The position numbers were made by a program, and so were the translations under genes. DNA of 55,629 nt from a virus (lineage: Duplodnaviria > Caudoviricetes): positions 1 through 55,629 of IMG/VR virus record IMGVR_UViG_3300037247_000947. One strand, 5' to 3'. The notes under the pieces are model-generated. The model did no database searches and was not told the DNA's origin. It was given only the letters and a program-made list of their open reading frames with translations. Shown here in pieces: positions 3,354-55,629 of this stretch (positions are counted from its first letter, which is position 1; every line of letters begins with the position of its first letter).

Positions 3354-4036
3354 CCCGACTCCAACAGTTCAAAAAGCGAGGCATCGTTCAATCCTACTCA
3401 CTTGGCCCGTACAACAAGTACAATGAGACTGAGCAATGGATTAGGATAAGCGAAGGCTGTCCCAATCATTGTGGATTCTGCTATGAGCCAAGAAAGGAGA
3501 AAGTCTTTCCTGTTCCGAGGATCATCCGAAACAAAGTCAAGATTATGGATATGAATCTTCTATCCAAGCCCGTAGCTCTTGACATTATTACCCAACTTGG
3601 AAACTACCGAGTAGATAAAAAAGTAATATACTATGAGCTTGTCTGTGGTATTGACTGGCGATTTCTCACCCAGAACATTGCAGAGGCTCTAAAGTATTCT
3701 CGCTTCAAGAAAATTCGCTTGGCTTGGGACTTTGGCTTCTCTCAACAGCTCAAAATCAAAGATGCGCTCACCCTCTTACTCAAGACAGGGTACCGACCAA
3801 AGGACATCACTATCTTTATGATATGCAACTGGCGCATCTCCTATGCCGTCTGCCTTAGAAAGCTCTGGCTCTGTGGAATCTGGAACGTCAAGGTCGCCGA
3901 CTGTTATTTCGATGGTCAGACCTCGCCAAATATTGACCCTATAAGTTGGACAGCAGAGCAAATCAAAAGTTTTCGTCGCCGTGTCCGTAAGCAAAATCAA
4001 CTCGTCAACTTTGGTATAGACCCAGAGGCAAAATGA
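3350..4036 (+). CDS. Radical SAM protein
   Basis: GCPNHCGFC (CxxxCxxC), MDMNLL, GIDWR, IRLAWD. Confidence 0.8.
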   Translation: MTRLQQFKKRGIVQSYSLGPYNKYNETEQWIRISEGCPNHCGFCYEPRKEKVFPVPRIIRNKVKIMDMNLLSKPVALDIITQLGNYRVDKKVIYYELVCGIDWRFLTQNIAEALKYSRFKKIRLAWDFGFSQQLKIKDALTLLLKTGYRPKDITIFMICNWRISYAVCLRKLWLCGIWNVKVADCYFDGQTSPNIDPISWTAEQIKSFRRRVRKQNQLVNFGIDPEAK

Positions 4037-5175
4037 CAAGATTAGAGCAATTTAAGAAAGTTTGCCAAAAGCACCTTGTCATAAAAGACACAACTTACAT
4101 AGACATAATCTTCGGAACCATCATGGCAAACCGTCTCGACTCAGACCCAGTATGGCTCTATCTCGTCGGCCCACCCTCATCCGGTAAAACAGTTGTCCTC
4201 CAGGCCCTTGCAGATACCGATGAAGCCATTCTCCGTGACGTCGTAACCCGTCCCTCTCTTATCTCCGGCTACATTGACAAGAAAACCAAAGTTGACAACT
4301 CCCTCATCCCTCTCCTCGATGGCAAGAATCTCATCATCAAAGACTTCACCACCATGCTCCAGATGCACTACAAAGACTTGAATGAAACCCTTGGTCTCCT
4401 CCGTGCTGCTTATGATGGTCGCTGCTGCTGGAGCTTTGGTGCCGGTCAAACAAAGGAGTATATCTCCAAATTCGGTGTCATTGCCGCAGTTACCAATGCC
4501 TTGGATGAACATCGCGGCGTCCTCGCCTCCCTCGGTGAACGCTTCGTCACCTACCGTATGCCGGACATCTCTGACTACGAAAAGTCTCGCCGTGCCCTCA
4601 AAGCAATGTCATGTCTTTCGACAAGTGGGCAGCGCCAGGAACTTGCCTCAGCCGCTATTACTATCCTTTCCTCCTCTCCCGAAATACCAGTACTTACCCA
4701 ACAGCAAATGCACTCTATCATCAAGATTGTTCAAGTTGCATCAAAAGCCTGTACCGCAGTTGTCAGAGACAAATATTCCAAATCAAAAGAACCTGAAATT
4801 CCTACTCCTCAACATCCCGCCCGAATGGCGAAAGAATTGGGAGACTTGGCGGTCGGAATTGCAATGGCCCGCAGCAAACCTCATATCACCAGGGATGAAA
4901 TCAAACTTATACAGCAGATGGCCCTCCACTCAATTACACTCAAGCGTATCAAGTTTCTCCACGTCTTACTCAATACCTATCCTGACTGGATAACTGTCAA
5001 TGATGTTTCCGAGGAGATGGGCTTTAGTGAAAACTCCGTTTCCCGCTGGTTTCAAGACCTCCTTCTCCTCAATATTGTCGAAAAACACATCGTATATTCA
5101 GGCCCAAAGTTGACAAAAACACATGAATTCCGCATACTCCAAGGCCAAATGTTGAAGCGAATCCTGTCAATCTAA
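4033..5175 (+). CDS. AAA+ (MCM-like) replicative helicase with C-terminal winged HTH
   Basis: Walker A GPPSSGKT, LIIKDFT Walker B variant, ERF Arg finger, PARM sensor II, C-terminal HTH-like segment. Confidence 0.7.
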   Translation: MTRLEQFKKVCQKHLVIKDTTYIDIIFGTIMANRLDSDPVWLYLVGPPSSGKTVVLQALADTDEAILRDVVTRPSLISGYIDKKTKVDNSLIPLLDGKNLIIKDFTTMLQMHYKDLNETLGLLRAAYDGRCCWSFGAGQTKEYISKFGVIAAVTNALDEHRGVLASLGERFVTYRMPDISDYEKSRRALKAMSCLSTSGQRQELASAAITILSSSPEIPVLTQQQMHSIIKIVQVASKACTAVVRDKYSKSKEPEIPTPQHPARMAKELGDLAVGIAMARSKPHITRDEIKLIQQMALHSITLKRIKFLHVLLNTYPDWITVNDVSEEMGFSENSVSRWFQDLLLLNIVEKHIVYSGPKLTKTHEFRILQGQMLKRILSI

Positions 5176-5544: not shown

Positions 5545-5597
5545 AGGCGGCCCCACCTTTTGACGGGATCGGAGGAGGAGGGTAGATGGGGCCGCCT
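5545..5597 (-). ncRNA. Hairpin RNA with C-rich anti-SD/antisense loop
   Basis: Perfect 11-bp stem AGGCGGCCCCA/TGGGGCCGCCT; minus-strand loop CCCTCCTCCTCCGATCCCGTCAAAA. Confidence 0.55.
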
Positions 5598-7323: not shown

Positions 7324-7509
7324 TTAATCCTTCCCGAAAAAATCATCCTGGCACTTTTGGCACAGTCCAGAAATCTTAAATTCTCTCAAGCTAATGTCAT
7401 TTCTAAAGTCCGAGACAAAAATTACCTTTTTACAAAAAGGACACTTTCCTGCCTCTACTAGTTTCACGTGCTCGCCAAGTCCAGCTTGTTTCATTATTTC
7501 CTTGTTCAT
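7324..7509 (-). CDS. Small zinc-finger protein
   Basis: CPFC...SGLCQKCQD. Confidence 0.65.
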   Translation of the reverse strand: MNKEIMKQAGLGEHVKLVEAGKCPFCKKVIFVSDFRNDISLREFKISGLCQKCQDDFFGKD

Positions 7510-7769
7510 TTCGTAACCTCCAATCCCACCGTCAACATTCCTTTCGCCCGACTAACATAAAGAGCAACCTGTACCGGCATACCTTGTAATTTATCCAACT
7601 CCTTCTTGGCGTTCTCCATCGCTGACCTTGCCTTTCTTAGACTATTATCCTTGCTGTCATATCCCGCCGCCTTATCCAGACACTCCTTGCAAATCACAGG
7701 TTGTTCTAGTTCACACTCGTCAAAATAGCCTAAGCATCCCTCACATTGACCTCTGTTTTCTTCACACAT
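7506..7769 (-). CDS. Hypothetical zinc-binding protein
   Basis: CEGC...CKEC; overlapping start/stop with neighbours. Confidence 0.55.
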   Translation of the reverse strand: MCEENRGQCEGCLGYFDECELEQPVICKECLDKAAGYDSKDNSLRKARSAMENAKKELDKLQGMPVQVALYVSRAKGMLTVGLEVTK

Positions 7770-8079
7770 TCTTAGGCTCCTCTCTGGTCTTGGGCTTGGC
7801 TTTTGCAATCGCATCGTTCAAGAGCTTATCAAGCTGGTCTTTATCAATATCTTGAGGACGCATCTTACCACTTTGACAAGCATCGCGCAAAGTCTGTATA
7901 GTTTCACAGACCTGCAGCAAATCATCCCTCTGCACAATTGCTCTACCAATTCGGCTCGGCATTTCGTTCATAAATCGTATAGCCTCAGCATCAAGAGCAC
8001 TTCTGCCGAAATCAATACATTTACAAAAGTGTGCCCAACCATCGGCAAATTCTTTAGTAAGTTTTGATTCATTACTCAT
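7762..8079 (-). CDS. Hypothetical protein
   Basis: AGAAAGGA RBS before MSNESK. Confidence 0.6.
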   Translation of the reverse strand: MSNESKLTKEFADGWAHFCKCIDFGRSALDAEAIRFMNEMPSRIGRAIVQRDDLLQVCETIQTLRDACQSGKMRPQDIDKDQLDKLLNDAIAKAKPKTREEPKNV

Positions 8080-8613: not shown

Positions 8614-8796
8614 TTATTTAAGGGGCAAAGTACTATTATCTCTGGCTTGCTCATAAGCAGCGTCTATTTTTCGGGCTTGCTCATCAGCCAGACGTTCATC
8701 GCAAAACTCTTCATGGGCTTCAACGTCAGCGATTCTTTCGTCATCATCACTACCTTGTCCCACATATTGACACCAATTACATATTATAGTTGGCAT
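8614..8796 (-). CDS. Small zinc-binding hypothetical protein
   Basis: CNWC...H...C; AGGAG RBS. Confidence 0.55.
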   Translation of the reverse strand: MPTIICNWCQYVGQGSDDDERIADVEAHEEFCDERLADEQARKIDAAYEQARDNSTLPLK

Positions 8797-9139
8797 TTTG
8801 TCTCTCCTGTATTTTTTGATTATCTGGCAAACTGCACAATTTCACATCCCCACCGCAAATAGCCACAAAGTAACCTTTGGCGATTTTGCAGTCATATTCT
8901 GTGATTAGCTTACCGTTTCCATCTGGTTCCAGTGGTGGTTCGCCCCAAGTCCACTCTTCATAGTATTCGCATCTTTTTTCCGGCCTTTCAGTCTTTGGCC
9001 TTCTCAAATAACTATCCCGTCTCTTGTCGTGTCGATTGATAACATTATTACGACTACATTCCCTACACGCTCCGGTATGTCCTTCGATATACATTCTGCA
9101 AGTTTCCCACCAGCAACATTCACGCGGATTGACTTCCAT
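8777..9139 (-). CDS. Cys-rich hypothetical protein
   Basis: GAAAGGA RBS; multiple Cys. Confidence 0.55.
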   Translation of the reverse strand: MEVNPRECCWWETCRMYIEGHTGACRECSRNNVINRHDKRRDSYLRRPKTERPEKRCEYYEEWTWGEPPLEPDGNGKLITEYDCKIAKGYFVAICGGDVKLCSLPDNQKIQERQNANYNM

Positions 9140-9280
9140 CTTATTTCCTTTCAGCCTTGCTCTGTTCCTTCACAATCGAATAACAGGCAAAGTACCATAA
9201 CATCGTCTTTACTATGCCAACTATAAAGTTAAAATCCATAGGGCTGACCTCACTTTACACTGTGAGGCCGCCCTGCAAAT

Positions 9281-9769
9281 TTAGAATTTTGCTCGATAAC
9301 TTATTGCCTCTGCAACGTGTTCTGGCTTAATTTCTGTACTATCAAGTTTTGCTACGGCTTCTGCTATTTCAATTATTGTAACAAGTTCGCCGAGAGAAAA
9401 CTTTAGTTCTTGTTGGGCGTGCTTTAGCAGCTGTTGGCATGAGCTATCAAGGTCTTTATATTTAATATCTCTCTTACTGAATTGACCATCCACCCAGATA
9501 CAATCCTTGTGAACCTGTCGCAAATGGTTCTGATGATTCTCAATAGAAGATACCTCACAAGTGCATTTTCTAATCCGGCTGCCAAAAAAATTACAAGGAC
9601 AAGGTGAAACAAGTTGAACTACCTGGTTGCTCTTGCCAGTAAATTTCGTAAACAAAGGGTCGCTGGCTATCACAACCAGAGTCTTTTTTGCGACTTGTGC
9701 TACGTCTTGTGCGCGTTGTACCCCCGCAGGTAAGCTAATACTTATATACTTGTTTTCGAAAAGCGTCAT
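9281..9769 (-). CDS. Stand-alone C-terminal fragment of ComM/YifB (Mg-chelatase-like AAA+)
   Basis: PCPCNFFGS..KCTC zinc motif and IAEAVAKLD..IKPEHVAEAISYR lid; no Walker A/B. Confidence 0.8.
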   Translation of the reverse strand: MTLFENKYISISLPAGVQRAQDVAQVAKKTLVVIASDPLFTKFTGKSNQVVQLVSPCPCNFFGSRIRKCTCEVSSIENHQNHLRQVHKDCIWVDGQFSKRDIKYKDLDSSCQQLLKHAQQELKFSLGELVTIIEIAEAVAKLDSTEIKPEHVAEAISYRAKF

Positions 9770-9879
9770 TTTCAGTCTCCTATTCTGTTTGTCATTTTAG
9801 TTTCACAAAGGCCGTCCCGCAGTAGCTATCTCCGGCAAGAGCTATATTGACGGCCACTAATACAGATAAGACTCAAATC

Positions 9880-10242
9880 TTAACTTGCTTTCTTAAATGC
9901 GAATCCAGCATAACCGTTTTTCTCACATTCATCCTTGATCGACATAAGCCAATCTCTTAACTCTTGCGGAGCTGGTTGTATCTCTACCTGACATTCGACT
10001 AGCAACACTTGTTCGTGTTCGTCAATAGTTAATATCTTGCCATTTTTTCGGCAAATATCACATTTTGCCCCGCGCTTCTCTGCTTCTCGAATTGCGTCCC
10101 TTGTTAATATTCCGCCGTTGTGGTCAGCAGCATAGACCACATGGCGCAGCGTGATACAATAGGGATGTGGTATTCCGATTGTATCAATAATTGTGAAATT
10201 GCCATCTTTACTTACTCCATACTCGCCTTTTACATCTGACAT
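9880..10242 (-). CDS. Hypothetical phage protein
   Basis: GAAAGGA RBS; IGIPHPYCIT...CDIC motif. Confidence 0.65.
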   Translation of the reverse strand: MSDVKGEYGVSKDGNFTIIDTIGIPHPYCITLRHVVYAADHNGGILTRDAIREAEKRGAKCDICRKNGKILTIDEHEQVLLVECQVEIQPAPQELRDWLMSIKDECEKNGYAGFAFKKAS

Positions 10243-10309
10243 AATACACCTGTTTCCTTTCTGTGTCTTATCTGTATGTAATTTCAAAAGAACAATTATA
10301 TCGGCCTTA

Positions 10310-10549
10310 TCAGCCGACAAGTTTTCTAATCAATTCTACTGCATCTTTGCCAAACTTGCGATCTATTGCCTGATAGGTACTTTCATTCTTTTCTGGAGCT
10401 ATCCACTCATCAAATGCAACAACGTCAAATCCTAATGCAACATTAGGGAAAAATGTAAACAGCCGAACGCCGAACATCCTGATAAACGGCATATTGTAGG
10501 TAAGCTGTTTATTTCGTTCTTTTAGAAAATAGTCCTGCATCGTTTCCAT
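10310..10549 (-). CDS. Hypothetical early protein
   Basis: GGAG RBS; in early operon. Confidence 0.6.
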   Translation of the reverse strand: METMQDYFLKERNKQLTYNMPFIRMFGVRLFTFFPNVALGFDVVAFDEWIAPEKNESTYQAIDRKFGKDAVELIRKLVG

Positions 10550-10592: not shown

Positions 10593-10757
10593 TTAGTCTT
10601 TTATCATAATCTCGGCTGCGAACATATCGAGTAACGTCTGTTCCAGCTTGTCGACCATTATGTCCATAACCTTTTGTGCTTGTTCTTGTGTAAGCGCATC
10701 TGTTTCAACTTCTTGGATCGGCCAACCTTCAATGAGTTCTATCTTAATACTTGCCAT
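10593..10757 (-). CDS. Hypothetical early protein
   Basis: ATG 10757 preceded by leader TTTGACGGGAGTAAATCA. Confidence 0.6.
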   Translation of the reverse strand: MASIKIELIEGWPIQEVETDALTQEQAQKVMDIMVDKLEQTLLDMFAAEIMIKD

Positions 10758-10758
10758 T

Positions 10759-10943
10759 TGATTTACTCCCGTCAAATACCTCAGTCAATATATTCCCATT
10801 TTACTGTTTGCTTGAAAGCTGCCATCTCGGCTTCTTCTTCACTGTCAAAAAACTGGGACACTTCGCCCTTATTATTCCGAAGATAATACCGACCGTCCCT
10901 TACTTGTGCAATTTCATAATACATCTGATTTACTCCCGTCAAA
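10759..10943 (-). repeat. 18-bp direct repeat forming identical leaders of the first two early genes
   Basis: TGATTTACTCCCGTCAAA at 10759-10776 and 10926-10943. Confidence 0.85.
10781..10924 (-). CDS. 47-aa first early protein (not in ORF track)
   Basis: MYYEIAQVRDGRYYLRNNKGEVSQFFDSEEEAEMAAFKQTVKWEYID, with the same leader as the next gene. Confidence 0.6.
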   Translation of the reverse strand: MYYEIAQVRDGRYYLRNNKGEVSQFFDSEEEAEMAAFKQTVKWEYID

Positions 10944-11722: not shown

Positions 11723-11926
11723 TTAGTCCTCTGTACAAGGTTTCCACGTTTTAGCTGTACTGCCAAACAGGAGTTTCGTAGCTTTCCTCTCCTTGGCTGT
11801 TAGTGCATGTCTCTTGGTATAGCCACATTCCCCACAGGTAAGTTCCATTCTGTCATAGAGACAGTCAAGAAGGGCTGATTTGAATATATGGCCTTTGTCA
11901 ATACACTTGCCATAGTCTTTAGTCAT
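11723..11926 (-). CDS. Hypothetical zinc-binding protein
   Basis: C...H...CGECG; coupled to upstream gene. Confidence 0.55.
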   Translation of the reverse strand: MTKDYGKCIDKGHIFKSALLDCLYDRMELTCGECGYTKRHALTAKERKATKLLFGSTAKTWKPCTED

Positions 11927-12284
11927 CTGACTTTCCTTTCAAAACTTGTTCAATGACCCGAAGCGCATAATCCCTTGTTTCTCCACAATCATTTATTGCT
12001 TCCCCGGCTCTACATTCAGGGCACTTTTTGTGAGGCGGATTCAAGTCACAATCACCGGTGCAATTATCCTGGTCGGCAAGAACCCATAGTCGTTCATAAT
12101 CCTTATATCTTTCTTCAACGTCTGGCTGTTTTTCGAGAATGGCAATAGCTTCACCTACCAACTTAAACATATCTTGCATAATCCATTTGTAAGTTTGATT
12201 TGCATCTATTGAATCATAATGTTTAATGCGAGCATCTTTGGCTGAGTCCTCTGCTTCTTTCAATTTATCTATCGCTTCTGACAT
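11919..12284 (-). CDS. Hypothetical protein
   Basis: GAAAGGA RBS; CTGDC...CPEC. Confidence 0.6.
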   Translation of the reverse strand: MSEAIDKLKEAEDSAKDARIKHYDSIDANQTYKWIMQDMFKLVGEAIAILEKQPDVEERYKDYERLWVLADQDNCTGDCDLNPPHKKCPECRAGEAINDCGETRDYALRVIEQVLKGKSDD

Positions 12285-12483
12285 CTTTCTTTCCTTTCTG
12301 TATCTGCTCGTGAAGTTTAGGCGAAACGGCAATGTAGTACTGATTGTCCGCAAGAGATTCATCGAGTCTTACTTCAATACCGGTGAAGCGAGTAACAAAA
12401 TCCTTTTGCCAAATATCATTCATTTTAGCAAGGCTTTCGATATTAAGCTCTTCCTCATCAGCAAAGACTGTATATATTGTCAT
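12265..12483 (-). CDS. Hypothetical protein
   Basis: Coupled ORF in minus-strand array. Confidence 0.5.
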   Translation of the reverse strand: MTIYTVFADEEELNIESLAKMNDIWQKDFVTRFTGIEVRLDESLADNQYYIAVSPKLHEQIQKGKKDVRSDR

Positions 12484-12713
12484 GGATTGTCTTTCTCAGT
12501 CTTCAGTACGTGGTCGAAGACTTTCTTTCGGCAATGTTCACAGATACAATAAACACCGATACAATGCCAAACTGGTGTCTCACGGCCACAATAATCACAT
12601 GGTGGAGTGTCTTTGTGAGTTATGCTTGTCGGGGGACTGTTGAAGAGCCATTTTAGGTTTTTCCATATCTTCATACCAAATTTCCTTTCATCCAAGGTTC
12701 CATCATACTGCAC
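12480..12713 (-). CDS. Zinc-finger hypothetical protein
   Basis: CDYC...CEHC. Confidence 0.55.
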   Translation of the reverse strand: MQYDGTLDERKFGMKIWKNLKWLFNSPPTSITHKDTPPCDYCGRETPVWHCIGVYCICEHCRKKVFDHVLKTEKDNP

Positions 12714-51483: not shown

Positions 51484-52523
51484 TGAAAAAAGTATCAAAA
51501 GAAGTAGAAACAGAAGTCGAAGAAATGTTAGACAGTGGTAGTACCGAGCGTGAGGTTGCCCTTGCCCTTGGTATTGGTCACTCTGTTGTCACTCGTGTCA
51601 GAAAGAAGATACGAGAACGACCAGAGATAAAATTAGAGGATTCTCCCAAACCCCAGTTTGACAGACCTCCCAAGAAGTCAGTTGACCCTCTTGCATTTCT
51701 TCAACAGGCGATAGAAAGAACAGACCGCCATCCTATTGACCCTGACTATTGTAAAATTAAGATAGATACCCAGAAGCCAATCGCAGTCATCAAGGCCGCT
51801 GACCTTCACTTCGGAGGTCTGGACATTGATTATCCGGCACTACAATCGCACGTAGAGTTTCTCTTCAATACTCCTAACTTCTACCTCCAACTCTTCGGTG
51901 ACGACCTAAATCTTATGATTATGCACCGAACAGCTTGTGCTCGTCACGACGGCTGGACACCGGAAGAGCAAGTCTATTGGCTTGAGAGTTTTGTCAATGA
52001 GTGTCTTAAACGAGGAAAACTCCTCTCGATGTGTTGGGGCAACCATACCGACGAGTTCACCGAAAGAAATGCTGGCTTTGGCCTCGTCCGAATGCTCATG
52101 CGGGACAAGATTCCTTACTTCCGAGGTCTCGGTTATATTGACTTGGTGGTTGGGAAACAAACTTACCCAATAGGCTTTACTCACAAGACCCGATTCCATT
52201 CCTTTATGAACCAACTACACGGCAACAAGAGACTTCAACAGATGCACACGGAGTTCTTCGGTGTCAATCGCAAACCCTGTCGAGAGTACATCACCGCCCA
52301 CACTCACTATCCTGCTGTCTCATGGGAAGGGTGTCTTCCCTCTGACAGAGTCTTCTTCATCAAGTGTGGAACATTCAAGACCAAGTGTCTTTATTCCCAG
52401 AGATACTTCGGTCAAGGACATATTGGTTGCCCAACTGTCGTCTATCATCCCGACCGACTTGAACATTTGTGCTTCCCTACCCCGTGGGAGGCTGCAATTT
52501 ATATGAAAGGCTGCGAAAAATGA
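51480..52523 (+). CDS. Calcineurin-like metallophosphoesterase with N-terminal HTH
   Basis: DLHFG, GDD, GNH, H, AHTH. Confidence 0.85.
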   Translation: MMKKVSKEVETEVEEMLDSGSTEREVALALGIGHSVVTRVRKKIRERPEIKLEDSPKPQFDRPPKKSVDPLAFLQQAIERTDRHPIDPDYCKIKIDTQKPIAVIKAADLHFGGLDIDYPALQSHVEFLFNTPNFYLQLFGDDLNLMIMHRTACARHDGWTPEEQVYWLESFVNECLKRGKLLSMCWGNHTDEFTERNAGFGLVRMLMRDKIPYFRGLGYIDLVVGKQTYPIGFTHKTRFHSFMNQLHGNKRLQQMHTEFFGVNRKPCREYITAHTHYPAVSWEGCLPSDRVFFIKCGTFKTKCLYSQRYFGQGHIGCPTVVYHPDRLEHLCFPTPWEAAIYMKGCEK

Positions 52524-53029
52524 AAAGACTTGATTTACATTGGTTAGCTGGCTATCTTGAAGGTGAAGGGTACTTCGGTTTCATGTGTACATCAAAAACT
52601 AATAAGGCTTCCGGTACTCCTCGAATTGAAGTAACTACAACAGACTATGATATAGCTAAAAAATGTAACAATCTTCTCAATGGAGGCAAAATTACAACAA
52701 GAGTAGCAACTGAAAGAAGAAAGAAGTGCTATTCTTGTCGTATTGCTGGAGATAAAGCAATCGTGCTGATGGACAAACTTGCACCTCTTATGGGTAAGAG
52801 ACGCCAAGAGGCAATTATATATGTTTTAGAAAAAGCAAAGAACAGGCCCAAAAGAGCCATTGGCTCAAAATGTTATAATGCTATCCTCAAAGAATCTGAC
52901 ATACCAGTAATTCGAGCTTTGAAAGCTATAGGAGCGTCTGTAAAAGATATTGCTTATCAAATTGGCGCTCCCACAACAACTATTAACCATGTTATCTCCG
53001 GAGATAGTTGGAGACACATAAATATATGA
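52520..53029 (+). CDS. LAGLIDADG-like homing endonuclease with C-terminal HTH
   Basis: WLAGYLEGEGYF; NAILKESDIPVIR...IA...TTINHV tail. Confidence 0.75.
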   Translation: MKRLDLHWLAGYLEGEGYFGFMCTSKTNKASGTPRIEVTTTDYDIAKKCNNLLNGGKITTRVATERRKKCYSCRIAGDKAIVLMDKLAPLMGKRRQEAIIYVLEKAKNRPKRAIGSKCYNAILKESDIPVIRALKAIGASVKDIAYQIGAPTTTINHVISGDSWRHINI

Positions 53030-53893: not shown

Positions 53894-54842
53894 CATAGTT
53901 CCGTCAACAAAACTCCTATGCGTTACAGTACACAAACTCGCATCCATGACTTGTCTGCGAAAGTATTTCTGGCGGCGCATCCTCAATCTCGAATCAAACA
54001 AGTTGAACAATGCCTTTTGGTACGGCGGTGTCCTCGGTGCCGGCTTTGAGGCCTACCTCCTTGGCAAGAATCCTGAGAAGGCAATGGACAAGGAGGATCG
54101 TCGCCGTCGTCGTGGTAAAATCATCAATCCTGACGACGAGCCTGAGATGGCAGTCCAGCGACGACTTATCTCTCATATTATCAATGAGGCTAAGAAACAA
54201 CCGGATGTGAAGAAAATGAGAATGACTCGTTCTCAGGCTCAATTCAAAGTAAGGTTAAAGGATTCTGGTCTATGGCTCTGTGGGACTGATGACGGCGAAG
54301 GGACTTATGCCGGTTCTCCTTGTGCTTTTGAAGAAAAGACAGCTATACAAGTCAATGCTGCTTATATTACCTCTCTTTCCTTTGACCCACAGATTCACAG
54401 CTATGCGTATGCTCGTCGCCTTGAGAAGAAACCTCCTCTTGCCATGTGTTGCTACTGTATCTTCCAGAAGGTAAAGAAATATGTCAAGAAGAAACAGACT
54501 GTGGATGACTTCTGTGATAGAGAGATACCAGAGGACTTGGCTACTCGTCCTGAGTTCTATTACCATTGGATAAGACTACGCCTCGGACGTCTTACTGTCT
54601 CGGCAGTTGGTCACGATATAGAGAGAGAGGCCACTATCCTCAAGAGTCTTTATGACAGTATGAGTGAGAAGGAAATCCTTGACCCACACAATTGGCCGAG
54701 ACGAAGAGGACTGTGTAGTGATTGGAAGGGCTGTGAGTTTCTTTCCTTATGCAGACGTCCGGCCAAGTGGAAATTGTATCTAAGGTTCTTCAAACAGAGA
54801 GAAATGATGTATGAGATTGAGAAACAGGAGTTGCAAAAATGA
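53886..54842 (+). CDS. PD-(D/E)XK nuclease (RecB/Cas4-like)
   Basis: CLRKY, GTDDG, EEKT, QIHSY, C...CEF..LC. Confidence 0.8.
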   Translation: MPSIVPSTKLLCVTVHKLASMTCLRKYFWRRILNLESNKLNNAFWYGGVLGAGFEAYLLGKNPEKAMDKEDRRRRRGKIINPDDEPEMAVQRRLISHIINEAKKQPDVKKMRMTRSQAQFKVRLKDSGLWLCGTDDGEGTYAGSPCAFEEKTAIQVNAAYITSLSFDPQIHSYAYARRLEKKPPLAMCCYCIFQKVKKYVKKKQTVDDFCDREIPEDLATRPEFYYHWIRLRLGRLTVSAVGHDIEREATILKSLYDSMSEKEILDPHNWPRRRGLCSDWKGCEFLSLCRRPAKWKLYLRFFKQREMMYEIEKQELQK

Positions 54843-55192
54843 AAATTGCCATTGTTGGCTCAAGAAACTTTAGAAACTATGCTCTTTTAGTTGAAATACT
54901 AAGTCCCTATTACGTTGCTCTTCCACTTGATAATTTGATAATCGTCTCAGGAGGCGCACGCGGAGCGGACACTCTCGGCAAGAATTATGCTGAGAATCAT
55001 GGCTTGGACTGTAATATCTTCAAACCAGATTGGGAAAGATATGGAAAGTCAGCAGGGTTTAGGCGCAATCAAACTATCGTTGATGCCTCTGATATAGTAA
55101 TAGCCTTCTGGGATAGCGAGTCAAGAGGGACAGCAGATACGATTGAGAAGGCTAAGAAAGCAAAGAAACCTACTTTAATTGTTTATTATTAA
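54839..55192 (+). CDS. SLOG family protein (DUF2493/YspA-like)
   Basis: IVGSRNF, SGGARGAD, RRN, FWD..SRGT. Confidence 0.85.
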   Translation: MKIAIVGSRNFRNYALLVEILSPYYVALPLDNLIIVSGGARGADTLGKNYAENHGLDCNIFKPDWERYGKSAGFRRNQTIVDASDIVIAFWDSESRGTADTIEKAKKAKKPTLIVYY

Positions 55193-55212: not shown

Positions 55213-55629
55213 ATGGCACATCTAAGACAGCCAAACAGAACAACCAGAGTACCAAACAGTCCAAGGCGCAAGTCCGAAAAGACCCTTGACTCTCGCCTCA
55301 AGCGCATCTCGGAAGAGCAAGTTATTCACTCCATCCAGTTCGAGATGGAAGCTTCCTCAAGCTGCAAAACCTTCGAGGACACCATCAGTTGCCTCTACGG
55401 TGTTCCAGGAATCGGAAAGTCCCACCTTGCAGAACTTCTTGGCCTTGCGCTACAGAAGAAATACTCCCTCAAGACCTCCGGCGTTTACTTCCTCCAGTGT
55501 GAGCCAATTAACCACTCTTGGCAAATTCGCAAGTCCCGTCTTGACAACTGGGTCACGTTTCGCCAGTTCATAGATAACGCTGAAGCTGACCCATCCTTTG
55601 TCTCGTCGGTCAAGATGTGGGTCATCGAC
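55213..55629 (+). CDS. N-terminal half of AAA_24/Sak4-like ATPase (runs off window end)
   Basis: AGGAG RBS; LYGVPGIGKS Walker A; ends at Walker B MWVID. Confidence 0.75.
   Translation, partial: MAHLRQPNRTTRVPNSPRRKSEKTLDSRLKRISEEQVIHSIQFEMEASSSCKTFEDTISCLYGVPGIGKSHLAELLGLALQKKYSLKTSGVYFLQCEPINHSWQIRKSRLDNWVTFRQFIDNAEADPSFVSSVKMWVID

Follow-up and report, generated by a model that had tools for sequence, protein, structure and literature searches.

The closest described relative of the protein considered here is ComM/YifB, a helicase represented by Legionella pneumophila ComM (PDB 8rxd and 8rxt), by the model TIGR00368 and by the domain pair Mg_chelatase and Mg_chelatase_C. In PMC6158740, ComM is described as a monomer which assembles into hexamers only in the presence of both nucleotide and DNA. 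Oligomerisation is reported to require the Lon domain, and the C-terminal Mg-chelatase domains are placed on the outside of the ring, where they make no contacts with one another (PMC11612176). The loops that bind DNA are the helix-2 insert and the pre-sensor-1 hairpin according to the legend to Fig. EV1 of the same paper, with the helix-2 insert also covered in PMC7159879, where the mention of YifB concerns classification only. Legionella R463, the arginine of the motif LSxR, is named in PMC11612176 as the arginine finger.

It has been shown that the C-terminal winged helix of DprA binds the Mg-chelatase domain of ComM, and that this leads to recruitment of ComM to the D-loop (PMC12012524). 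In two-hybrid experiments with DprA and Vibrio ComM, the substitution L455E abolished the interaction and R497E weakened it; the same paper describes the DprA-ComM interface as species-specific and not conserved in sequence. YraN is reported as a further ComM binder in a preprint (10.1101/2024.02.06.579203).

The gene described here is carried by a phage. It lies in an IMG/VR virus record which is 55,629 bp long and complete (CheckV completeness 100%), and the whole of which is referred to below as the window; it encodes a protein, P0001, belonging to a family which we term mini-ComM. Like ComM, mini-ComM has a Cys4 ribbon of the form PCPCG...CxC, a pre-Walker-A helix KRAL..A and a set of C-terminal helices, which in ComM end in HIAEA(I/L)xYR. 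Unlike ComM, it is phage-encoded, it is about 160 rather than about 500 residues long, and it is without the Lon domain, Walker A and B, the sensor-1 asparagine, the trans-acting arginines and the pore-loop region. No description of a phage-encoded truncated ComM was found in open-access papers or in bioRxiv. Mini-ComM is a conserved, phage-borne, ATPase-dead family descended from the ComM/YifB helicase. The features of the gene and its product are collected in Table 1.

Table 1. Features of the mini-ComM gene in the window
Feature	Position	Strand	Remark
Coding sequence of mini-ComM P0001, 162 aa, ATG start, stop codon included	9281..9769	-	
AGGAG ribosome-binding site, ATG 7 nt further on	9777..9781	-	read straight off the sequence
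Terminator-like GC-rich hairpin beginning at the mini-ComM stop codon, then a U-rich stretch	9232..9282	-	
Hairpin within the 110-nt spacer upstream of mini-ComM, downstream of the ORF 9880-10320	9810..9855	-	z -2.58
aa 15-35, helix alpha0 and strand beta1, as in ComM 'KRALEIAAAGGH-LLL' preceding Walker A; Walker A missing	9665..9727	-	
aa 56-71, Cys4 zinc ribbon PCPC(N)...CTC	9557..9604	-	
aa 106-159, three-helix Mg_chelatase_C (AAA+ lid) module, ending HVAEAISYR	9293..9454	-	

The original prediction, made from the letters alone, was that of an intact open reading frame with its own AGGAG ribosome-binding site, and this holds. The hairpin that begins at the stop codon has a minimum free energy of -43.4 kcal/mol (146-nt stretch; z -3.26). 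Scans with promoter and terminator consensus sequences, together with a repeat search, found no clear transcription unit.

Recognition of the protein by domain models is uneven. P0001 passes the gathering threshold of the Pfam model Mg_chelatase_C (PF13335) over residues 93-159, with 31.5 bits against a cut-off of 26 (32.4 bits in a six-frame search). Residues 48-90 match the last part of the Pfam model Mg_chelatase, from position 150 to 192 out of 207, with 16.3 bits, which is under the cut-off. The scores against the full-length NCBIfam models are below their thresholds: 28.6 bits for YifB TIGR00368 (cut-off 362.4) and 15 bits for NF007365 (cut-off 530). PHROGs v4 contains no family for P0001, and none that is convincing for eight related viral proteins.

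The anatomy of the protein relative to ComM was established from alignments of mini-ComM family members with, initially, six and then 28 full-length ComM proteins. The alignment with ComM starts at the pre-Walker-A helix, so that the N-terminal Lon-like domain is missing. P0001 opens with a short beta-hairpin, which leads into the ComM pre-Walker-A helix and strand (KRAL..A...LLI); DSSP applied to the structural model assigns a helix to residues 15-26 and a strand to 30-34. About 120 ComM residues are then skipped, a stretch which takes in Walker A and Walker B and extends as far as the sensor-1 strand. G229, P230 and P231 of ComM, at the entry to the P-loop, are replaced in P0001, and the rest of the Walker A/B segment is gapped. 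The protein resumes at the sensor-1 strand and continues through the Cys4 ribbon (PCPCx...CxC) to the next helix and strand. A further 50 or so residues of the lid are skipped before P0001 ends in three C-terminal helices and HVAEAISYR.

The positions conserved in both mini-ComM and ComM are R19, A20, A24, P56-C57-P58-C59-G60, C69, C71, L115, A136, I139, A140, I147, H151, E154, A155, Y158 and R159 (numbering of P0001). The four cysteines C57, C59, C69 and C71 are invariant in 32/32 mini-ComM and 28/28 ComM sequences, and the motif PCPCG...CxC is predicted to be a zinc ribbon inherited from ComM. Conserved in ComM only are GG.H and GPP of the P-loop entry. Three catalytic positions, each conserved in 89% of the 28 ComM proteins, are substituted: the sensor-1 asparagine is S55 in P0001, the arginine of SGPLLDRID is C90 and that of LSxR is G127. 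The lid motif ARTIADL (R in 79%, T in 93% and D in 86% of ComM) is not conserved in the mini family. It had been claimed that the zinc motif and the HVAEAISYR lid of ComM are retained, and that Walker A and B have been lost along with the arginine-finger and sensor II arginines. The Mg_chelatase_C match and the alignment against 28 ComM proteins support the former, and the deleted segment and the residues C90 and G127 bear out the latter; in each detail the description of the sequence was correct.

In AAA+ domains the strands of the central sheet are ordered 5-1-4-3-2. The retained strands beta5, beta1 and beta4 are therefore neighbours, and what has been excised is a single continuous edge of the sheet plus the P-loop. 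As judged from the alignment, both DNA-binding pore loops of ComM are predicted to fall inside this excised block. Mini-ComM is thus excluded as an ATPase or DNA translocase of the ComM type.

An AlphaFold2 model built from the family alignment described below (A1) is compact, with a pLDDT of 94.9 and a pTM of 0.85. What remains of ComM is predicted to fold as a compact shell composed of helix alpha0, strands beta1, beta4 and beta5, the Cys4 ribbon and the three-helix Mg_chelatase_C module. With Foldseek, neither the PDB nor BFVD yielded a match at E<=1e-3. With VIA-align the top match was Legionella ComM (Z 8.1 in the wide search, 8.8-8.9 on a second look); residues 106-159 superpose onto ComM 433-499, with 66 residues aligned over that segment at an rmsd of 2.2-2.3 A. 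The matches that follow are MCM lids and then whole AAA+ modules (RuvBL, MuB, Lon and PAN; Z of about 7, 130-145 residues). As Z scores below 8 are middling by VIA-align's own note, the case for homology is carried by the sequence evidence, in which a profile of the A1 family searched against the PDB has ComM 8rxd as its sole match (E 4.8e-19).

P0001 is one of many such proteins. An exhaustive phmmer search of 1.84 billion representatives returned 409 matches at E<=1e-3. About 26 proteins of 150-195 residues head the list, with E values from 3e-47 to 3e-10, and cover residues 1-160 of P0001; full-length ComM, at about 500 residues, enters from E 8e-10. A word-index search with P0001 matched P0001 itself and nothing else. 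The mini-ComM family was represented by alignment A1, in which 31 homologues and the query, of 148-195 residues, are aligned end to end. It is defined by the order of its elements, namely the KRAL helix, a beta strand, the zinc ribbon and the lid, and by the lack of a P-loop. P0001 has a length in this range, aligns end to end, carries the elements in this order and is without a P-loop. P56, C57, C59, C69, C71, E154 and Y158 are invariant across the 32 sequences, and the homologues that align end to end span at least 31 clusters at 50% identity.

A quick tree of 147 shared columns, with a midpoint root for drawing only, places P0001 in a clade of 22 representatives (SH-aLRT 98). Ten more short proteins ('group 2') are closer to ComM in sequence, and the tree leaves their position open between this clade and ComM. 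All of the short forms may have one single origin, which the tree neither excludes nor shows. An N-terminal beta-hairpin absent from ComM has been gained in group 1. In one 195-residue family member, P0002, some 30 residues of the lid helix pair are repeated in tandem within the protein; the duplication is either real or an assembly artefact. In the ESM Atlas, used as a source of leads only, there are virus-dominated clusters of 198-215-residue Mg_chelatase/Mg_chelatase_C proteins with 133 and 94 members.

Estimates of dN/dS (Nei-Gojobori) for the three closest gene pairs (L004, L005 and L006; 75-87% amino-acid identity) are 0.18-0.29; more distant pairs are saturated. According to the original prediction, the lack of conserved stand-alone homologues would mark the gene as a relic; instead, a conserved family was found. 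This family, together with purifying selection, indicates that P0001 is a working protein and not a relic, and it is almost certainly a real, selected, ComM-derived pseudo-ATPase. Selection thus acts on mini-ComM as a folded whole. Family members range in net charge from -7 to +11, with a median of 0. There is thus no consistent signature of DNA binding or of DNA mimicry, which favours the binding of protein.

Mini-ComM is scattered among phages that otherwise have little in common. A scan of IMG/VR found 19 loci, nine of which form, with the window, one blastp family with P0001. Eight of the nine are complete mini-ComM-type open reading frames of 161-208 residues; the ninth (L020, 139 residues) looks like a C-terminal fragment of ComM. 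A 199-residue viral variant (L018, 5964-6563) has a Walker-A-like GPRGSSKT and one helix joined directly to a CPCG zinc ribbon, and its sequence suggests an intermediate between ComM and mini-ComM. Small open reading frames (median 62-132 residues), mostly on the same strand, are found within 3 kb of the gene in 11/11 loci (10 distinct, L121 being the same as L003). Conserved neighbours are limited to the three related phages L004, L005 and L006.

The window was compared as a whole with four other records (G001, G003, G004 and G005); the five have a GC content of 29-44% and lengths of 50-84 kb, and 4/5 are complete. After clustering by blastp, the sole family common to these five otherwise unrelated records is mini-ComM, ahead of a DNA methylase (4/5) and PolA (3/5). 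It follows that no phage partner is conserved, and mini-ComM needs no conserved one. In a second set of five (the window and G001-G004), the only match to the Mg_chelatase model is the zinc segment of mini-ComM in each case, so that full-length ComM is encoded by none of these phages. No tyrosine integrase was found in this set (0/5), and no member of the DprA winged-helix family in five phage records. A candidate DprA encoded in the window at 54839-55192 (plus strand) was rejected: it is a 117-residue SLOG protein related to YAcAr/cpYpsA (PF10686, 57.6 bits), which scores above the threshold for the DprA family on account of the SLOG fold that they have in common. Its product is 57% identical to that of a gene in the nearest mini-ComM phage (L002, 2572-2955). 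In the nearest relative (G001), whose mini-ComM is 50% identical, the gene is preceded on its own strand, some 3 kb upstream, by the YAcAr gene and PolA.

Among cultured phages, tblastn returned one weak record for P0001 and 12 for P0047, a member of group 2; mini-ComM was not found, one record having been inspected. The window itself is remote from cultured phages, its portal having at most 23% identity to that of any of them, and its 963-residue protein has no match in genomes. The record inspected among the 12 for P0047, labelled 'UNVERIFIED: Bacteriophage sp.' (L119, MT835528.1 17187-23747), carries a full-length comM (510 residues) followed directly by a dprA-like gene (387 residues), and looks like bacterial DNA. 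Plasmids gave 12 records, in which mini-ComM was not found; of the two that were inspected, one has a full-length yifB and the other a comM remnant with integrases next to it. In a scan of one genome per prokaryote species with profile A3, no stand-alone mini-ComM was seen among the best 80 loci listed, in which matches start at query residue 29 or later with the exception of L083. Two of these prokaryote loci were inspected: L083 is a full-length ComM and L056 (3292-3921) is an ordinary 209-residue 3' remnant of comM in a Pirellulales MAG. The remnant with integrases next to it (L117, 5001-5498) is an unannotated 3' fragment of comM, flanked by two integrases in a Pseudomonas aeruginosa record; both L056 and L117 are examples of comM disruption by insertions. 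Two of the best 80 loci in a metagenome scan are mini-ComM, both identical to family proteins already known. Collectively, the database and literature searches suggest that the family is new to the literature, to PHROGs v4 and to PADLOC, and that it is specific to uncultured phages.

The window is organised into two opposed blocks of genes. On the minus strand, from 43.9 kb downward, lie the terminase, portal, and major head and tail genes, followed from 14.3 to 5.6 kb by a run of about 24 small open reading frames with a median length of 84 residues. This run includes both mini-ComM and an MT-A70 methylase; it shares the strand of the structural genes and follows on their downstream side. That it is an early operon, as the original prediction had it, is an assumption, which neither the gene order nor the hairpins bear out. 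On the plus strand, from 44.5 kb across the end of the record to 5.2 kb, are genes for replication and modification: a UDG-like gene, a 3'-5' exonuclease, PolA, a repair exonuclease, the YAcAr/SLOG protein, an AAA_24-like ATPase that the ends of the record cut in two, an N6/N4 methylase, a radical-SAM protein and a 380-residue P-loop protein (4033-5175). The last of these also has the motif AAVTN and appears to be an orphan phage ATPase which is not specifically related to ComM.

A number of other features of the window were observed. The AAA_24-like (RecA-type) ATPase gene occupies 55213-55629 and 2-499 on the plus strand; its 3'-open part consists of 139 whole codons up to base 55629, and its 5'-open part is in frame from base 2. 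The record is thus a circularly permuted genome with a mismatch of about 1 base at the junction. Many of the small open reading frames near mini-ComM (7324-7814, 8614-9139 and 11723-12713, all on the minus strand) contain paired CxxC motifs, such as CPFC...CQKC, CEGC...CKEC, CGEC and CPEC, so that putative small zinc-ribbon proteins abound in the array. Because of a direct repeat of 22 nt, whose copies (10755-10776 and 10922-10943) are 95% identical, the adjacent small open reading frames 10593-10775 and 10781-10942 both begin with MTGVNQM. The repeat is probably a translation-initiation region present twice, in which the internal methionine marks the true start. Where the plus- and minus-strand blocks converge there is a 14-nt inverted repeat (5545-5597; 93% complementary, 25-nt loop), which could be a bidirectional terminator. 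Inside the replication module, 52469-53029 (plus strand) has a weak match to LAGLIDADG_3 (21.3 bits, slightly below the cut-off) and is possibly a homing endonuclease.

How mini-ComM acts can be answered only tentatively. The reading that we prefer is that it serves as a non-enzymatic, stoichiometric decoy for a conserved partner of ComM, namely DprA and possibly YraN. Three losses from ComM yielded it: those of the Lon domain, of the segment that starts with the P-loop and stops just short of the sensor-1 strand, and of the initial portion of the lid. The product would neither bind nor hydrolyse ATP, would be unable to thread DNA, and is without the ring-forming domain. It retains the peripheral module by which the DprA winged helix recruits ComM. 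This anatomy suits a competitor that has no catalytic activity, and to that extent the decoy of the original prediction is upheld. Acting alone, it would occupy the host partner, and the branch-migration helicase would in this way be uncoupled from recombination intermediates in the infected cell. It is because the Lon domain is absent and the DprA-binding C-terminal domain kept that a decoy for ComM partners is preferred over a poison of the ring. There are points against it. As the DprA-ComM interface is described in PMC12012524 as species-specific, its retention is not judgeable from sequence. Vibrio L455 and R497 are placed in the retained helices by numbering like that of Legionella 433-499 and not by alignment, and ARTIADL is not among the motifs that the family has kept. 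For mobile elements, the usual reason to block transformation is to avoid being cured. Such a rationale is not obviously applicable to these apparently virulent phages, in which tyrosine integrases are lacking (0/5). A more specific claim, that mini-ComM is the first phage inhibitor family of the DprA-ComM-YraN module and that it titrates the DprA winged helix (or YraN) off ComM to stop D-loop extension, is for now doubtful.

Behind the partner decoy comes the possibility, somewhat less probable, that mini-ComM works outside the host ComM pathway altogether, the zinc ribbon and lid having been reused as a small adaptor or regulator which binds, for example, a different conserved host protein, or else nucleic acid, in the course of takeover or of phage DNA metabolism. 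The location of the gene in arrays of small accessory open reading frames in all 11 loci examined, its movement as a single gene between unrelated phages and its position downstream of PolA in G001 would all suit such a role, as would the divergence of several lid residues conserved in ComM and the hairpin gained in group 1. However, the most conserved segments of the family are those of ComM (the zinc ribbon, R19/A20/A24 and H151-R159), which suggests an inherited constraint, perhaps a purely structural one, and the inconsistent charge speaks against general DNA binding. It is unlikely that mini-ComM caps or poisons the ring, which was the main idea of the original prediction, as it would if its arginine-less trans-acting face docked on the ATP site of a ComM protomer and so blocked hexamer closure and ATP hydrolysis. 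The retained beta4-alpha4-beta5 region and the lid do carry the trans-acting arginines in ComM, both of which are replaced here, and VIA-align indicates that the overall AAA+-like arrangement is preserved. Nevertheless, the domain reported as needed for oligomerisation is missing, the C-terminal domains that remain are peripheral in the ring and do not touch one another (both from PMC11612176), and ComM assembles only with nucleotide and DNA (PMC6158740), for neither of which mini-ComM has a site. The complex of mini-ComM with a ComM AAA+/lid segment, predicted from A1 without controls and with a stand-in (P0028, residues 195-512) that is not the host's protein, had a score of 0.00 (mark 0.32), which speaks neither for binding nor against it.

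More improbable again is a decoy directed against a host immune protein which has or recognises a ComM/MCM-type AAA+ module. The setting resembles that of counter-defence genes, in that single-gene mobility across unrelated, apparently virulent phages is combined with arrays of small genes, but PADLOC models searched with seven mini-ComM-type proteins gave nothing convincing (best E 0.0042 and 0.039), full-length ComM gave generic P-loop matches only, and no paper was found that ties YifB/ComM to defence. It had also been proposed that mini-ComM is a cofactor of the phage's own related AAA+ helicase; it might equally be the missing lid of that protein. In the product of 4033-5175 (P0151) there is a Walker A sequence, GPPSSGKT, as well as LIIKDF, which resembles Walker B; against this, it belongs to no Pfam or PHROG family and its PDB matches are to generic AAA P-loops (best E 0.0018). 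Furthermore, its gene is neither adjacent to mini-ComM nor on the same strand, and a search run without a positive control found a homologue in 0/5 other mini-ComM phage records, three of them complete. The proposal is therefore not supported and must be considered highly improbable. Least probable of all, and scarcely credible, is a relic in decay, left over from a phage or host comM that had been full-length. Genuine remnants such as those of the Pirellulales MAG and P. aeruginosa show that relics do arise, but they have no N-terminal KRAL helix fused to the zinc ribbon; the intact frame with its ribosome-binding site, the breadth of the end-to-end homologues, the low dN/dS and the compact, confidently predicted fold all argue in the same direction. 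The possibility that the gene is an att-site duplicate of the 3' end of comM was likewise rejected, given the fusion of the pre-Walker-A helix to the zinc ribbon and the absence of an integrase.

The C-terminal 'Mg-chelatase' domain and the zinc finger are the least understood parts of the ComM helicase. The zinc finger is unresolved in cryo-EM maps, and it was only in 2025 that the C-terminal domain was proposed to act in recruitment by DprA. Selection has isolated these parts as an independent, well-folding protein of 160 residues and spread it through unrelated phages. Were mini-ComM to bind DprA, YraN or ComM, it would be a ready tool for dissecting helicase recruitment and the first sign of phages targeting the ComM pathway; if it does titrate DprA or YraN, a 'transformation' helicase pathway would matter in lytic infection. 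Should it bind something else, it would point to an unknown function of the ComM periphery. Either way, mini-ComM cleanly illustrates how a pseudo-ATPase arises when one edge of an AAA+ sheet is cut away.

Three known systems invite comparison, in addition to ComM itself. The three-helix lid of mini-ComM matches the lids of MCM and the C-terminal domains of the proteasomal Rpt proteins (Z 6-7.6); these are without the ComM zinc ribbon, and the relation is one of fold only. A precedent for a small phage protein acting on competence is Paratox (Prx), which, according to PMC8383118, blocks streptococcal competence by binding ComR. Unlike mini-ComM, Prx is prophage-encoded, targets a regulator, is unrelated in sequence and is not a fragment of the pathway's own enzyme. 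Closest in appearance are the remnants of comM left by the insertion of mobile elements such as AbaR-type islands (PMC11441513), which are also short open reading frames containing the ComM C-terminus. These, however, are simple 3' truncations lying beside integrases or other inserts in bacterial chromosomes, whereas mini-ComM is internally deleted, capped at its N-terminus, conserved, and carried in the genomes of phages.
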